Part shown: positions 3,644 to 56,306 of the stretch, in pieces
How positions within the stretch are numbered: position 1 is the first letter of the stretch
Layout: the number at the start of each line of letters is the position of its first letter
Sequence record: EU863408
Length of the DNA: 64,000 nucleotides
Strand: one strand, 5' to 3'
Source: Escherichia phage JSE
Program-made: the position numbers and the translations under genes
Notes under the pieces: model-generated
The model's database searches: none
Seen by the model: the letters and a program-made list of their open reading frames with translations, nothing else
What the model was told of the DNA's origin: nothing

Positions 3644-3671
3644 ATTATACACGAGCTAATCCGGTTGTCAA
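3644..3671 (-). promoter_or_regulatory. Sigma70-like early promoter TTGACA-16-TATAAT
   Basis: Minus-strand read of 3644..3671; directly downstream of terminator hairpin. Confidence 0.6.
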
Positions 3672-3682
3672 CACCCCAAAAC

Positions 3683-3710
3683 GAAAAAGCCGACCCTTTC
3701 GGATCGACTA
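3683..3710 (-). terminator. Rho-independent terminator after nrdD (CGAUCC-GAAA-GGGUCG stem-loop followed by U run)
   Basis: GNRA-loop hairpin with G-U wobble followed by GCUUUUUCGUUUU on minus strand. Confidence 0.6.
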
Positions 3711-3714
3711 AAAA

Positions 3715-4707
3715 TTACATGTGCTTAACGCGGTTTACCATCTCGGAGTGTTTCCCGTGGTTAAATGGACGCAGATCAACAGATCCAAGATATCCACTAA
3801 CGCGACGGATAACATTCATCTTTTCCAGATTGTCATTTCCGCAATCAGGGCAAACAAAACCAGACTCGGTCGCTCTCATTTCCTTATTAGATCCGCATAC
3901 ATGACATACATCAGAAGGAGTATTAACACCGAAGTAGTGCAATTTATCCATTGCATAGTCTACTACAGTTTCAAGACCTTTCAGGTTGTTTTTCATGTCT
4001 GGGAACTCAACATAAGAGATCATGCCACCGGACGCCAGCCAGTGATAATCTTTCTCAAAGTCGATTTTCTCAAATGGTGTGACTTTCCGGTCTACGTCAA
4101 GGTGGAATGAGTTGGTGTACCAGTCTTTATCGGTAGCACCCTTAACAATACCAAATTGCTCTCTGTCCAGTCGATTAAATCGATAGCAAAGGCTCTCGGC
4201 TGGCGTACCGTAAAGACTAAACCCAAGTCCGGTTTCGTCCTTCCATTTTTCAGTATAATGACGCAAGATCTTAAGAATATGTTTACCGTATCGCTGCGCA
4301 TCTTCCGAATCAAACGGATGAACACCAAACAGGACGCTCAATACCTCATGTAAACCAATATATCCAAGAGAGATACTAGCGCGACCATCTTTCAGCACTT
4401 CCAAAATTTCATCGTTTTGATGAATACGGAAAAATGCACCTTCTGTATACAGTACAGGAGCAACATTGGCTTTAGCCCCTTTTAAAGCGTCTACGCGACT
4501 CATAAGCGCATCAAAGCAAATAGGCATACGATTAGCTAGCTCTTGTTCGAATAGCTCAATTCTGCGCATTACAGACGCTTTACCAGCACGACGCGCGGCA
4601 ATAAGAGCAATACGCGGAAGATTCAGAGTCACAACACCCAAGTTATTACGTCCGTCTAATACTTCCTCGCCTTTCTCGTTATGCCACACACCCAGGAAAC
4701 TTCTACA
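3715..4707 (-). CDS. nrdD: Anaerobic ribonucleoside-triphosphate reductase NrdD, exon 2 (C-terminal half)
   Basis: Begins CRSFLGVW...; C-terminal RRVSGYLGS glycyl-radical motif and CHVCG...CPDCG zinc site; ORF-track ATG at 4708-4710 reinterpreted as intron 3' end. Confidence 0.8.
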   Translation of the reverse strand, partial: CRSFLGVWHNEKGEEVLDGRNNLGVVTLNLPRIALIAARRAGKASVMRRIELFEQELANRMPICFDALMSRVDALKGAKANVAPVLYTEGAFFRIHQNDEILEVLKDGRASISLGYIGLHEVLSVLFGVHPFDSEDAQRYGKHILKILRHYTEKWKDETGLGFSLYGTPAESLCYRFNRLDREQFGIVKGATDKDWYTNSFHLDVDRKVTPFEKIDFEKDYHWLASGGMISYVEFPDMKNNLKGLETVVDYAMDKLHYFGVNTPSDVCHVCGSNKEMRATESGFVCPDCGNDNLEKMNVIRRVSGYLGSVDLRPFNHGKHSEMVNRVKHM

Positions 4708-5467
4708 CATTATTTGTTCAGGGTAGGTCGCTAATCTACCCCCGCCTTTCGGCTGCTACATGTCGCCATGCAGATCAGACTATATCTTCTATCTTTCGAT
4801 AGTCTACCATTTCGGATCGCTTGATCCTACGCCGCTACATTCATCACGGCTAGTCGTTAGGCATTTCATAGCGGAACTCATATTCATAAGTATTGGTTTT
4901 TCTACCATCAAGAATTGCAGATACATTTTTACGATGCAAGCCCAATGTTTCAGAAAGACTTCTCACGCTTTTAAATGTCTGCTCTTGTCCGGTTTCTTTA
5001 TGGATCGCAGTAACCTTATATGAACGACGTTTGAACTTATAGCACCCGTTTTCGTAACCTTCTTTCGTGTTTTCGCTGTTAGTCCCCCACTCAAGGTTAG
5101 ATGCATCGTTTATAGTTTTATCGTCGTTTTTATGTTTCACATATCGATAGCCGTTAGGATTCGGAATCCAACATTCAGCCACAATAACATGAACACGCAA
5201 ACATAAAGGTTTCTTGTCTCTCCTTACCCTTACTAATGTATATCCGGTATTGTTTTCTATCCAGGTACTCAACTGTTTACCTTTAGGAGAAAACACCCGT
5301 CCATCTTTCGATACCATATATTCGGTATCACGAATTTTTCTAAGTTCCATAATATATCCTCTTATACACATTGGCGTAAAGAGAATATGACCGCTATGTT
5401 TAGCACGGGATTGTCTTCTAGAGAGTTCCCCCGTTTAGGCAGATTTTAGATGAGCTGTTTAAAGTTT
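4708..5467 (-). mobile_element. Group I self-splicing intron (T4 td/nrdD-like core) in nrdD carrying an HNH endonuclease ORF
   Basis: 760 nt between NrdD halves; 5' segment AAUCUGCCUAAACGGGGGAACUCUCUAGAAGACAAUCCCGUGCUAAA and 3' segment with AGAUAUAGUCUG resemble T4 group I intron core; exon 1 ends in U, intron ends in G. Confidence 0.75.
4850..5350 (-). CDS. Intron-encoded HNH homing endonuclease (166 aa)
   Basis: HVIVAECWIPNPNGYRYVKHKNDDKTINDASNLEWGT HNH motif; ATG 5350 with AAGAGGA RBS; located inside intron. Confidence 0.8.
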   Translation of the reverse strand: MELRKIRDTEYMVSKDGRVFSPKGKQLSTWIENNTGYTLVRVRRDKKPLCLRVHVIVAECWIPNPNGYRYVKHKNDDKTINDASNLEWGTNSENTKEGYENGCYKFKRRSYKVTAIHKETGQEQTFKSVRSLSETLGLHRKNVSAILDGRKTNTYEYEFRYEMPND

Positions 5468-6337
5468 ACCCATCGGGCTAACCGGAACACTAGATCCAGT
5501 GATGCTACGGTTATTCTTCGCAGAGATATAATCAGGGTAAAGACGCTTACTAGAACATTCCAATGCAAGTTGCTTAATGTCGTAGTTCGGATCTTCCGGT
5601 TTAAGGTTTAATCCTTCTTCTAAGAACATCACCAGCTTAGGAAACACCGGAGTTATACCGTCTTTACCTAAACCTTTAGTTCGAACTTTCAGGATCGCTT
5701 TCTGAATCAGTTTTTCTTCCCAGCTAGTACCCATACCAAAGGTTAAAGTCACAAAAGGTGTTTGACCGTTGGTAGAGAACAAAGTGTTGATCTCATATTC
5801 CAACGCCTGATATCCGTCTAACGTTTCTTTTTCTGTTTTCTCTTGTGCATAGAGAGTATCAGCTTTGATTCCGTAGGTTTCGGCATCAGCAAGGTGTTTA
5901 TGATATGTTTTCTTAACATACGGCGCTAACACCTGGTCGATGTTTGCAATTGTGGTCCCGCCATATTGATGACTTGCCACCTGTGCGATAATTTGAGCGG
6001 TTACAGCACATGCAACACCGATCGATTTAGGACTTTCGATTTGTGCGCTACCCAATTTAAAACCATTCTCTAACATGTCTTTGAGATTAACAAGACAGCA
6101 GTTAGTAAACGGCATAGCTGGTGCATAATCCATATCATGATAATGAATATCACCGTCTACATGCGCTTTATAGATGTGCTCAGGTAACACGGTTTTAGCA
6201 ATATGTTTAGACACAGCGCCAGCAATCAGATCTCGACGTGTCGGGAATGTTCGCGCGTCTTTGTTCGCGTTCTCTTTGCTTACTTCGTTTTCTTTACCCG
6301 TTGCGATCTCTGTAATGTCTTTGATTAGTTTTTCCAT
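5468..6337 (-). CDS. nrdD: Anaerobic ribonucleoside-triphosphate reductase NrdD, exon 1 (N-terminal 290 aa)
   Basis: ATG 6337 with AGGTGA RBS; ends ...VPVSPMG; ORF-track stop 5459-5461 lies inside the intron. Confidence 0.8.
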
Positions 6338-23281: not shown

Positions 23282-23812
23282 TTAGTATTTTACGTTACGT
23301 CGAACGCCTTTTCGAATCTGACAAATAGCAGACGGTGAAACATTATATTTTCTTGCAAGTTCTACACCCTTCATATGGGGAGAAGATAAAATCTCTTCCA
23401 CTTGGTCGTCGGTAAGTTTTGCGTTTCCGTGGTTCTCTCCCCAATTTTTGTTTAATCCTTCTTCCTTCGCATGAACAAGATTTCGGGTATCTGTCGTCCA
23501 TTCAAGATTATAAAGGTCATAGTTTTGTTTGTTTCCATCCTTATGATTAACTACACGGTAGTTATTTGGATTCGGAATAAACGCAACCGCCATAGCTTTA
23601 TGCATGTTCACGGTTTTTCTAAATCCATCCGGCTTATAACATACTGTAAATTTAGAATAACCAGTTTTACCATAAACACTAATATAATTTCCGGTCTCCG
23701 TATTTCTAACCCTACCATGAGAGCTAATCTCAAATTGAGTGTAGGGCAACAGCGCATCAATCACTTTCCATTCTTCGACAGGATGGTCATCACAATATCT
23801 TTTAATCATCAT
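23282..23812 (-). CDS. Free-standing HNH homing endonuclease with C-terminal HTH
   Basis: FIPNPNNYRVVNHKDGNKQNYDLYNLEWTT HNH motif; C-terminal LTDDQVEEIL...ARKYNVSPSAICQIRKG helix-turn-helix. Confidence 0.8.
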   Translation of the reverse strand: MMIKRYCDDHPVEEWKVIDALLPYTQFEISSHGRVRNTETGNYISVYGKTGYSKFTVCYKPDGFRKTVNMHKAMAVAFIPNPNNYRVVNHKDGNKQNYDLYNLEWTTDTRNLVHAKEEGLNKNWGENHGNAKLTDDQVEEILSSPHMKGVELARKYNVSPSAICQIRKGVRRNVKY

Positions 23813-24959: not shown

Positions 24960-25535
24960 TTATTTTGGATCTGGGAAATTCAATAGAGCATATTCTCCAT
25001 AAAATTTCCTAGCTGCATTATCATAAGCGATTGCAGCTTCGATTTCTGTGTCATATTGTCCAAGAACATGTCTTTGTAGGTTGACCATTATACTAGCTCT
25101 CCATTTCTTACGCAAATCCTTCCTGTTACACTTACTAACACCCTTATACACACTAGAAAACTTTTTAGACTTCTTCTTTCTATTATGTTGATTTTGCGCG
25201 TCGGTTGCCTCCCTAAGATTTGGAGGATTGTTATTAGCAGGATTACCGTCAATATGATCAATTAATCTAACTTGCGTCCCATGTTCTAGAAACCAAACAA
25301 CCCTATGCACGAATAGATGAACTCTAGGAAGACCGTCATCTCTACTATGCCAAAATCTAAGATGACCATCTTTATTTGTTCTGACTTTAACTAAATCGCC
25401 GTGTTTATATCTACTCCCTAATGGTCGTCCTTTGATAGCTTTACTATCGACTCTATAATATAAGATACCCTCTATATGAGCATATCTAAGTTTTATCTCG
25501 TTTTGTAGGGATTCATCCCAATATTTAAAAGCCAT
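24960..25535 (-). CDS. HNH endonuclease fused to AP2 DNA-binding domain
   Basis: HRVVWFLEHG...IDHIDGNPANNNPPNLREAT HNH motif and C-terminal YKGVSK...WRASI...YDNAARKFYGEYA AP2-like segment. Confidence 0.75.
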   Translation of the reverse strand: MAFKYWDESLQNEIKLRYAHIEGILYYRVDSKAIKGRPLGSRYKHGDLVKVRTNKDGHLRFWHSRDDGLPRVHLFVHRVVWFLEHGTQVRLIDHIDGNPANNNPPNLREATDAQNQHNRKKKSKKFSSVYKGVSKCNRKDLRKKWRASIMVNLQRHVLGQYDTEIEAAIAYDNAARKFYGEYALLNFPDPK

Positions 25536-33900: not shown

Positions 33901-35043
33901 TTAACTATTGATCATATCAATGACGTTTTGTAGCTCTGATATGGATAGCGTTTCTGTATATCCATCTGGCATATCTTCTTTACTAACATAGAAACCTTTA
34001 TACTTTTTCTTTATTGCACATTCCATAGAAAGAGCATCATCACCGTTATCGTATTTTTTATAAAATGTCAACTCATGACGAAATATAGATTTTGAAGATT
34101 GGTTTTGTATTCTTTTTATTAATCTGTTGTTGGTTATACCAAATTTTATAGCAACCGCAACATCTTCTTTGTATAAAGTTTGTACATAAATGTATGCAGG
34201 TTTATTCCTCTTAAATCCATGATTGCTACACATAGGGCAACCGCTATTTTTTGATACGTAGTCTCCTAAGTTTGGCGTAAATTCATGTCCGCTACTACAA
34301 CGCATTACCAATTTTGTTTTTAGCATTCCTCTATACTCACCGCCAACAAAATCAACAAATGTATCACCTTTATCAATCGCCTTATCTGTTATTTCCTTTA
34401 CTACTTGCTCAGTTGACTTCTTGTTTTTACCTGAACATAGTTTACATCTAGATCCATTAACTAAAAACGAGTGACCGGATGCAGTATATTCATGTCCATT
34501 AGGGCATTTAACTAAGATATTTCTTTCATAAAAATCTTTATAATCAGACACATAGCCAATGACTTCGTGGTCTTTTTGGTTATTCCTCATCTCTGTTAGC
34601 AACTCTTCGCTATTCCAGCGTTTACCCTTAACGCAGAGACAACCATGACCTTGATAAAGATATATAAATTTCTTAGTAAAGTTTTTGTTGCAATCAGGAC
34701 AATGCATTAGTAATTCTGTCATTTGACCTGTATATCCTTTAGGAATATCGATCAATGTGTATTTTCCGCATATTGTCTTTAATGCATCATCTATTCTTTC
34801 TTTGGTCCAGCGTAAGCGACCAGTGCATTCATGACATTTTACACCCAGTCTAAGAGTATCTAAACTAAATATAGTTGACGTATGTCCTTTATCACATTTT
34901 AACTTAAATCTAGTATCCTTTGCGTTGGTGTATTCTCCGACTAGACCATACCATTCATAACAACATGGGATATGTTCTTTTACCTTCTCTAGATATACAC
35001 CGAACGGTCTAGGAACTGAATTGGGTTTTCTTTCTTTAGTCAT
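33901..35043 (-). CDS. Putative endonuclease: four tandem zinc-ribbon repeats plus C-terminal GIY-YIG-like (T5orf172-type) domain
   Basis: Repeated C-x2-C...G-H...C-x2-C units; C-terminal KPAYIYVQTLYKEDVAVAIKFGITNNRLIKRI; inserted between genes 2 and 3. Confidence 0.5.
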   Translation of the reverse strand: MTKERKPNSVPRPFGVYLEKVKEHIPCCYEWYGLVGEYTNAKDTRFKLKCDKGHTSTIFSLDTLRLGVKCHECTGRLRWTKERIDDALKTICGKYTLIDIPKGYTGQMTELLMHCPDCNKNFTKKFIYLYQGHGCLCVKGKRWNSEELLTEMRNNQKDHEVIGYVSDYKDFYERNILVKCPNGHEYTASGHSFLVNGSRCKLCSGKNKKSTEQVVKEITDKAIDKGDTFVDFVGGEYRGMLKTKLVMRCSSGHEFTPNLGDYVSKNSGCPMCSNHGFKRNKPAYIYVQTLYKEDVAVAIKFGITNNRLIKRIQNQSSKSIFRHELTFYKKYDNGDDALSMECAIKKKYKGFYVSKEDMPDGYTETLSISELQNVIDMINS

Positions 35044-55550: not shown

Positions 55551-56306
55551 ATGAAAAACTATTATCTATACGAAATAAAGAACAATATAAATGGTAAGAT
55601 ATATGTTGGCATTCGTGGGTATGATGGTGACATAAGTCAAGATCCTTATATGGGTAGTGGATTGACTCTTAAGAGGTCTATTAAAAAGAACGGGATAGAA
55701 AACTTCACAAAAACAATTCTCAAAACGTTTGACTCATGGAAAGAGGCAAGGAAAGCAGAAAGAGAAATAGTTACAGAGGAATTTGTAAAAAGAGAAGATA
55801 CCTATAATGTTTCGGTTGGTGGACAAGGTGGAAATACTCACGCTGGGATGAGCGAAGAACGAAGAAAACTTGCAAGCGAAAGACACGCAGAAGCAAACCG
55901 AAATAGAGTATGGAAGCAAGAATCTAGAGATAAGGTTAGCGCAAGATTCAAAGGTCATAAGCTATCACAGAAGCAGATAGACGCGCTAAAGAAGGCAAAC
56001 ACAGGAAGAAAGTTCACAGAAGAACACAAGTTCAAAATAGGTAAAACGTGGCGAGGAAAGAAACGACCAGATATAGGAGAGAAGGTTGCGGCAAAATTAA
56101 CAGGGAGAAAACTACCCCCAGAACATGTGGCAGCAATAACGCAAAATACACCGAGAGGAAAACAACACTTTAGGGCAAAAAGATTCTTCATCGACGATAT
56201 GGAATTTTATATTTTGAGTGATGCAGCTAAAATGTTTGGTATAAGTTATAAAACGGTTAAAGCTAGACTTCTCTCAGATAAGTTTCCTACATGGAGATAT
56301 GAATAA
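55551..56306 (+). CDS. Free-standing GIY-YIG homing endonuclease (Seg-like) inserted between genes 14 and 15
   Basis: N-terminal YYLYEIKNNINGKIYVGIRG GIY-YIG motif; basic repeat region; C-terminal HTH; stop overlaps gene 15 start (TAAATG). Confidence 0.85.
   Translation: MKNYYLYEIKNNINGKIYVGIRGYDGDISQDPYMGSGLTLKRSIKKNGIENFTKTILKTFDSWKEARKAEREIVTEEFVKREDTYNVSVGGQGGNTHAGMSEERRKLASERHAEANRNRVWKQESRDKVSARFKGHKLSQKQIDALKKANTGRKFTEEHKFKIGKTWRGKKRPDIGEKVAAKLTGRKLPPEHVAAITQNTPRGKQHFRAKRFFIDDMEFYILSDAAKMFGISYKTVKARLLSDKFPTWRYE

Follow-up and report, generated by a model that had tools for sequence, protein, structure and literature searches.

The nrdD gene of Escherichia phage JSE is interrupted by a 760-nucleotide (nt) insert that is a T4-type group I intron, with a ribozyme architecture that is complete and co-varying. 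The insert occupies 4708..5467 on the minus strand of the 64,000-nt stretch of sequence record EU863408 analysed here (the window); all coordinates are window positions, and nrdD, the insert and the endonuclease open reading frame (ORF) within it all lie on the minus strand. The intron belongs to an IA2-like class without P2, an assignment that draws on its boundaries relative to phage RB49, the Rfam model RF00028, folding and covariation. We consider it very probable that the element as a whole is a mobile, self-splicing intron of JSE nrdD; from its sequence and that of its relatives we infer its splicing, the activity and specificity of its endonuclease, and its regulation.

In the ORF listing NrdD is encoded in two pieces, an N-terminal half of 292 amino acids (aa) at 5459..6337 and a C-terminal half of 331 aa at 3715..4710, and the Pfam NRDD profile is divided between them, positions 1-250 falling in the first and 264-562 in the second. 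JSE is an RB49-like Krischvirus, with 97-98% identity across the nrdD region, and nrdD is uninterrupted in RB49 and in 55 other Krischvirus records. Alignment to the uninterrupted RB49 gene delimits the JSE insert to exactly 4708..5467. Exon 1 (5468..6337, Met1-Gly290) is collinear with RB49 nrdD up to its 3' end, ...CCGATGGGT, whose last nucleotide is the T at 5468; the insert starts AAACTTTAA and ends ...AAATAATG, with its final G at 4708; and exon 2 (3715..4707, Cys291-Met620 and stop) begins TGTAGAAGT at 4707, its first codon being the cysteine codon. The junction is thus in phase 0, between Gly290 and Cys291, inside the conserved motif SPMG|CRSF, and the predicted spliced-junction sequence is CCGAUGGGU|UGUAGAAGU. 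When the exons are joined they encode an NrdD of 620 aa, the length of RB49 NrdD, with 619 of 621 positions identical (99.7%), and the joined protein aligns over its whole length, without a break, to the T4 NrdD structure 1H78 (E=4e-256). JSE Cys291 aligns with Cys290 of T4 NrdD, the catalytic thiyl-radical cysteine of this class III reductase. An intein was also considered and rejected: the insert is not fused in frame with the flanking ORFs, and an in-frame stop is reached three codons into the intron, which opens AAACUUUAA.

The RNA transcribed from the insert can be assigned helix by helix to a group I ribozyme. P1 is formed by the last 7 nt of exon 1, GAUGGGU (5468-5474), and the internal guide sequence GCUCAUC (5449..5455), and it places a U·G pair, U 5468 with G 5455, at the 5' splice site; P10 is possible between ACA (5456-5458) and the first three nucleotides of exon 2 (UGU). 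The 5' core (5391..5443), as defined in the covariation alignment, comprises the P3 5' strand UCUGCC (5438-5443), the P4 5' strand (5429-5434), the P5 hairpin (5414-5424), the P4 3' strand (5405-5410), the P6 5' strand GC (5403-5404) and the P6a 5' strand CAUAGCGG (5391-5398). The 3' core (4708..4874), which is supported by the RF00028 match, covariation and alignment, continues with the 3' strands of P6a (4867-4874) and P6 (4861-4862), the P7 5' strand GACUA (4851-4855), P7.1 (4831-4850), P7.2 (4814-4827), the P3 3' strand GGUAGA (4803-4808) and P8 (4789-4802). These are followed by J8/7 and the P7 3' strand, AAGAUAUAGUC (4778-4788), which align to the RF00028 consensus, by P9 (4756-4773), P9.1 (4744-4753) and P9.2 (4721-4741), and by the 3' tail UGAACAAAUAAUG, ending ...AAUAAUG with the terminal G at 4708. 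The P7 pairing GACUA/UAGUC completes the pseudoknot, and both the conserved J8/7-P7 segment of group I introns (GAUAUAGUC) and their terminal G are present in the JSE insert. The minimum free energy (MFE) fold of the ORF-deleted JSE core with 7 exon nucleotides contains P1, P3-P6, P6a, P7.1, P7.2, P8, P9, P9.1 and P9.2.

Scanned against Rfam in gathering mode, the window as a whole gave no hit, because the 516-nt ORF loop splits the core, while a local, E-value-threshold search matched RF00028 to the 3' half of the insert (4756-4983; 27.4 bits, E=9e-5), in a segment that includes the invariant AAGAUAUAGUC and P9. The ORF-less copy at the same nrdD position in phage phi92 scores 70.6 bits (gathering score 50), and the nrdD product in the phi92 GenBank record is labelled 'spliced variant' (gp192A); the intron of T4 nrdD, known as sunY, scores 105.3 bits.

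Covariation was assessed over 11 cores aligned with MAFFT, those of JSE, phiS, phi92, HMD-6, 18-1-2, Mushroom, two Vibrio phages, an Aeromonas phage terL intron, T4 td and T4 sunY. Across the 54 proposed pairs, standard pairing is found in 96% of cells, and in 31 of the 54 both partners have changed. The observed value was not reached in any of 500 column shuffles, and pairing falls to 33-44% when the 3' partners are displaced by 1-3 columns. P3 is 100% paired with five of its six pairs compensated, and P4, P5 and P6 are each 100% paired. The P6a loop is closed by CAUAGCGG/CCGCUAUG in JSE, and the corresponding stems of phi92 (CGUAACAG/CUGUUACG) and of a Vibrio phage (CGAAAUAU/AUAUUUCG) are fully compensatory relative to it. 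MAFFT was out of register in P7.2, P8 and P9.1, which were examined one hairpin at a time instead of entering the formal count of pairs; P7.2 and P8 fold as hairpins in every member despite their differing sequences. The first pair of P1 follows the exon, being G-C in JSE and Mushroom, C-G in phi92 and U·G in the Vibrio phages and T4 sunY.

A preliminary description of this region, made from the sequence alone, had reported two nrdD ORFs separated by 760 nt that contain a 166-aa HNH ORF, and had proposed a group I intron with an HNH passenger and a junction at SPMG|CRSF that places U at the last exon position and G at the end of the intron. The ORF listing, Pfam and the RB49 alignment agree with the first of these statements, the boundaries, helices and covariation with the second, and the RB49 alignment together with the P1 pairing with the third. 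The checks that it suggested fared unequally: the joined protein is collinear with T4 NrdD, as expected, while the Rfam covariance search yielded the local match to the 3' half at a score under the gathering level.

On this structure, splicing would proceed as follows. The ribozyme core would fold in the transcript, with the guide GCUCAUC and the exon sequence GAUGGGU forming P1; an external guanosine would attack immediately 3' of the U in the U·G pair; exon 1, once released, would attack immediately 3' of the terminal G at 4708; and ligation of ...CCG AUG GGU to UGU AGA AGU would produce the 620-aa NrdD, with the catalytic-loop motif SPMG-C291-RSF spanning the junction. The same arrangement might be taken for a gene in pieces, that is, a non-splicing endonuclease cassette that leaves two NrdD polypeptides to reassemble, and there is a reported precedent in the NrdA of Aeromonas phage Aeh1, which is split by mobE. 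GenBank and RefSeq (NC_012740) annotate JSE nrdD in just this way, as two separate 'anaerobic NTP reductase large subunit' coding sequences (CDSs; ACL78008.1 and ACL78006.1) with no intron, and exon 1 does meet a stop three codons into the insert while an ATG stands directly before exon 2. That ATG (4708-4710), however, is simply the last three nucleotides of a conserved intron tail, ...GAACA(A)AUAAUG, T4 td also ends in AAUG, and no purine-rich Shine-Dalgarno sequence precedes it. Moreover, the ORF is flanked by a complete, co-varying ribozyme for which a free-standing cassette would have no need and whose guide fits the exon, and the break falls inside SPMG|CRSF, right before the catalytic cysteine. 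We therefore regard a split gene as highly improbable and the spliced intron as the better account.

The P6a loop holds the ORF of a homing endonuclease of 166 aa (4850..5350), identified as an I-HmuI-like HNH protein by Pfam and by homology to 1U3E. Two starts are available, the ATG at 5350, which lies 7 nt downstream of AAGAGGA (5357-5363), and an upstream ATG that gives 173 aa; the GenBank entry ACL78007.1, 'Homing endonuclease', is the 166-aa protein with 7 additional N-terminal residues. Since the Shine-Dalgarno sequence at the ATG at 5350 and the starts of homologs in other phages, which lie at the equivalent position, agree, 166 aa is a better model than the annotated 173 aa. The protein is ordered as an N-terminal NUMOD4-like region, the HNH domain and a C-terminal NUMOD/helix-turn-helix region, and it passes the cutoff of the I-HmuI NUMOD-like family PF22083 (32.3 bits, cutoff 27). 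Its homology to I-HmuI (PDB 1U3E; E=4.4e-9) is full-length, collinear over residues 8-163 versus 10-172, and the HNH residues of the two proteins correspond, the JSE motif KHKNDDKTINDASNLEW lying opposite DHKDGNKDNNLSTNLRW of I-HmuI. I-HmuI, of Bacillus phage SPO1, is a nicking HNH enzyme encoded by a phage group I intron and has a similar size and domain order, 156 of the 166 JSE residues being alignable to it; the two differ in that identity is low and that I-HmuI targets a DNA polymerase gene, where the predicted target of the JSE enzyme is nrdD.

The endonuclease ORF runs into the ribozyme, its last eight codons and stop (..YEMPND*) being encoded by the 3' strands of P6a and P6, J6/7 and the P7 5' strand, so that translation and ribozyme folding would be mutually exclusive on one RNA molecule. 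Upstream, a hairpin at 5354..5388 (MFE -14.1 kcal/mol) covers the endonuclease Shine-Dalgarno sequence; its z-score is -2.6, and 1 of 200 shuffles folds equally well. It resembles the Shine-Dalgarno occlusion described for T4 intron endonucleases (PMC2988022), and by analogy with I-TevI it probably limits translation of the endonuclease. No T4-type late promoter (TATAAATA) was evident upstream of the ORF or inside the 5354-5388 hairpin, and a sigma-70-like 9/12 match at 5380-5351 does not exceed chance expectation. The JSE and phiS copies of the endonuclease differ at 19 nt but at only 1 aa, which indicates that the protein is under purifying selection. A search of IMG/VR for closer relatives returned only Felixounavirus-type matches at 54% identity, and the phage collection held none between 54% and 97% identity.

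Orthologs of the JSE intron occur at the cysteine codon in at least four other phage groups, namely Justusliebigvirus with Phapecoctavirus, Vequintavirinae, Felixounavirus and several Vibrio phages, and they carry, or keep remnants of, a collinear HNH ORF about 50-54% identical to that of JSE at the aa level. Because intron and HNH ORF stand together at the same site in these other groups, the two are taken to have entered Krischvirus as one unit. Identity of the JSE core over P3-P9 is 84% with phi92, 82% with HMD-6 and 75-77% with the Felix O1-like and Vibrio copies. In the phi92-/V5-like phages (Stephanstirmvirinae and Vequintavirinae; phi92, phiWec187, VEcB and HMD-6) the insertion point, ..AUGGGU|UGUAGAAGU, is identical, and these introns share with JSE the helix set, the placement of the ORF in the P6a loop and an HNH ORF that ends in YEMPND* encoded from P6-P7. 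They differ from JSE in an endonuclease with about 50% aa identity, in a guide, GCUCAUG instead of GCUCAUC, that tracks the exon, and in the sequence and length of P7.2, P8 and P9.1, and in phi92 the ORF has been lost. The Felixounavirus introns (Mushroom, UAB_Phi87, wV8-like) are at the same site, with 75% core identity and an orthologous HNH ORF (54% aa identity), but the ORF stops earlier (EYI*), the intron ends ...CAACAAG, and in ESCO56 the ORF is internally deleted.

The ORF-less introns at the cysteine site arose from different deletions. The ORF of phi92 was lost cleanly, AMO3598 and ESCO56 keep both ORF ends, and 18-1-2 has a minimal P6a hairpin of 4 bp; compared with the intact copies, these four document endonuclease decay and offer a snapshot of a cycle of gain, decay and loss. 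In the phage collection, several 'Campylobacter phage' entries numbered MG0656xx (A142, A145, C2, C3 and others; 137-146 kb), labelled as phages of Campylobacter jejuni, have nrdD introns near-identical to those of the V5-/phi92-like phages of E. coli, and these are probably coliphage genomes whose host was misassigned.

The introns of T4 are more distant relatives. The preliminary description had pointed out a resemblance to the T4 td intron, and the resemblance is real: a 47-mer at 5399..5445 on the minus strand matches td at 42 of 47 positions, far beyond chance. The core as a whole, however, was found to be about equally close to sunY and td by blastn and alignment (76% and 74% identity, respectively, over P3-P9), and the view of it as specifically td-like was dropped; the guide sequence, the missing P2 and the P7.1 loop favour sunY over td. 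The td intron, which encodes I-TevI, shares with JSE a homologous core, an ORF in the P6a loop, the 3' tail GAACAUAAUG and a hairpin that occludes the Shine-Dalgarno sequence, and differs in its host gene (thymidylate synthase), in having P2, in its short P7.1 and in the GIY-YIG family of its endonuclease. The sunY intron shares with JSE the host gene, a homologous core, the absence of P2, a near-identical guide and the P7.1 loop UGAUGAAUGUA. Its site is nonetheless different, at codon 180 in phase 1, 111 codons upstream of the phase 0 site Gly290/Cys291 of JSE; its endonuclease, I-TevII, is a GIY-YIG protein encoded downstream of P9, in P9.1, rather than an HNH protein encoded in the P6a loop; and it is 1033 nt long, against 760 nt in JSE.

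These comparisons bear on whether the JSE element is the sunY intron with its I-TevII gene replaced in situ by an HNH gene, as the preliminary description had suggested under the heading of the same intron type with a swapped endonuclease. The ORF-deleted JSE core aligns to T4 nrdD by blastn with 78.5% identity over 190 nt, P2 is missing from both introns, and the sunY guide and the 22-mer GCUCAUGUAAAAUCUGCCUAAA are the same as in the phi92 ortholog, all of which would fit such a replacement. Against it, the insertion sites differ, the ORF stands in P6a and not after P9, the identity to td is nearly as high as that to sunY, orthologous intron-HNH units occupy the cysteine site in the other phage groups listed above, and the other sampled Krischvirus (phiS apart) have no nrdD intron. 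'Same intron type' is thus accurate at the level of the structural subgroup and not beyond it, and an in situ swap is contradicted by the site, the ORF loop and the orthologous units; we believe that it almost certainly did not take place.

The 22-mer GCUCAUGUAAAAUCUGCCUAAA together with the guide upstream of it is identical between sunY and the cysteine-site intron of phi92, despite their different sites, and both exon heptamers, UAUGAGU for sunY and CAUGGGU for phi92, pair with the guide GCUCAUG. This shared tract may be the trace of a past site switch within nrdD. A broader reading, which we put forward tentatively and think rather unlikely as a whole, is that the cysteine-site family and sunY descend as sisters from one ribozyme that changed place between two nrdD sites, each lineage taking up its own endonuclease family in its own loop (GIY-YIG after P9, HNH in P6a), with the JSE-type copy now sweeping through Krischvirus. 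The common guide GCUCAUG, which pairs with UAUGAGU as well as NAUGGGU, would make it possible for the intron to insert ectopically, through reverse splicing or through off-target cleavage. In the logan contig from SRR28822591, a JSE-type cysteine-site intron is flanked by an exon 1 about 75% identical (in its aligned part) and an exon 2 about 95% identical to those of JSE. The same contig has a second insertion in exon 1 (contig positions 306-1084), at ..FSTNG/QTPF.. (JSE Gly190/Gln191), 10 codons from the sunY site, with a 170-aa HNH/I-HmuI-like ORF and a partial RF00028 match of 35.8 bits; these features would add a third site to those that group I introns occupy in nrdD. Should the site-switching history be true, nrdD, with its third site at Gly190/Gln191, would be a natural system for studying intron site-switching and endonuclease capture.

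Within Krischvirus, the JSE intron appears from sequence comparison to be spreading among RB49-like phages by ongoing homing. Besides JSE, only phiS has the intron among the Krischvirus records of the phage collection. The exact JSE endonuclease is found on at least 14 public contigs, and in all eight places shown it lies between nrdD halves. Seven Krischvirus-like contigs differ from JSE at 0-4 of 760 nt in the intron (99.5-100% identical) and at 31-100 of 1863 nt in the exons (1.7-5.4%), with Fisher p values from 1.7e-3 to 5.6e-11. The difference holds when third positions of the ORF are compared with third positions of the exons (p = 0.04 to 8e-7), and for the non-coding positions of the intron it is significant in five of the seven contigs. 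The block of low divergence covers the intron and reaches no more than about 10-30 nt into the exon on either side. In JSE, phiS and all intron-bearing alleles from other families, exon 2 opens with the 9 nt TGTAGAAGT, where RB49 and the intron-less Krischvirus have TGTCGTAGC; the three synonymous changes, at +4, +6 and +9, form a putative co-conversion tract; MIZ4, the closest intron-less allele, differs from the spliced junction of JSE only at these three positions and at +30. The exon tract beside the junction varies among the contigs (TTCCTG, TTCTTG, TTCTTA), as expected for independent co-conversion events. In a mixed infection, the HNH endonuclease would nick or cut an intron-less nrdD near the site, and recombinational repair from the intron-bearing genome would copy the intron along with a few exon nucleotides next to it.

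Recombination is very frequent among T4-like phages, and a splicing intron might be carried among them by ordinary homologous recombination or a recent regional sweep instead of by endonuclease homing. The decay of the endonuclease in the ORF-less copies of phi92, AMO3598, ESCO56 and 18-1-2 is in keeping with such spread, and so is the bias that retrieval introduces into the sample of contigs. Strong purifying selection on the endonuclease, an HNH motif that aligns with that of I-HmuI, and a low-divergence block limited to the intron and about 10-30 nt, as short co-conversion tracts predict, speak for homing instead, and we judge spread without the endonuclease improbable.

Several observations weigh against a mobile, self-splicing intron and should be set beside this evidence. 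The JSE insert falls under the Rfam gathering score (27.4 versus 50 bits), and the Pfam HNH_3 match, at 22.1 bits (E=1.1e-4), is just under the curated cutoff of 24.8. The contigs were retrieved by their identical endonuclease protein, which biases intron identity upward, and the third-position and non-coding controls lessen this bias but do not remove it. PhiS shows the opposite pattern, with an intron more diverged than its exons, and represents a second haplotype that is 3% diverged. The changes in exon 2 could have been selected, for endonuclease immunity or RNA pairing, and not passively co-converted. Finally, splicing and cleavage are both predicted from sequence.

Other features of the window were noted in passing. 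Directly downstream of nrdD, at 3644-3709 on the minus strand, a terminator-like hairpin (3688-3709) is followed by a perfect sigma-70 consensus promoter, TTGACA-16-TATAAT (3671-3644), ahead of the next ORF. Compared with RB49, JSE has four further insertions specific to it, of a single ORF each: a 176-aa ORF with HNH_3 and NUMOD4 domains (23282-23812, minus strand), which is 35% identical to the intron endonuclease; a 191-aa ORF with HNH and AP2 domains (24960-25535, minus strand); a 380-aa ORF with a CapR-homology domain and treble-clef zinc-finger repeats (33901-35043, minus strand), in a 1206-nt insertion beside gene 2; and a 251-aa seg-like GIY-YIG ORF with an I-TevI DNA-binding domain (55551-56306, plus strand), between genes 14 and 15. 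These four are probably free-standing homing endonuclease genes, in agreement with the JSE count in PMC2993671. The segment 51656-55518, from the end of gene 12 through wac, 13 and 14, is about 85% identical to RB49, against 93-97% elsewhere, which suggests a mosaic replacement in the neck/whisker module.

Homing endonuclease genes of JSE were surveyed by Petrov et al. 2010 (PMC2993671), who counted seven and recorded gene 43 as the sole site of a putative intron. Bardina et al. 2016 (PMC4837284) described Felixounavirus nrdD as split by a homing endonuclease 53% identical to that of JSE and did not call it an intron, the paper on the Felix O1 genome reports it to be free of introns, and split phage ribonucleotide reductase genes were catalogued by Dwivedi et al. 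2013 (PMC3653736). The literature searched contained no description of the JSE element as an intron. T4-type group I introns that carry HNH endonucleases are well known from phage nrd genes; the JSE copy is a new, unannotated case of this kind.

For annotation, the finding means that JSE nrdD (ACL78008.1 and ACL78006.1) should be one spliced CDS with an intron-encoded endonuclease, and that the same re-annotation applies to phiS and to Felix O1-like, V5-like and many Vibrio phages, in which nrdD now appears as two 'NrdD-like' fragments. It also places a T4-type intron at a second defined site in nrdD, right before the catalytic cysteine codon, in keeping with the rule that the most conserved sequence of an essential gene is what mobile introns target. 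With one intron haplotype in diverged exons, variable co-conversion tracts and a genus that is mostly intron-less, the Krischvirus nrdD locus is a natural case for ongoing homing, and JSE and RB49 make a ready experimental pair for a cross.

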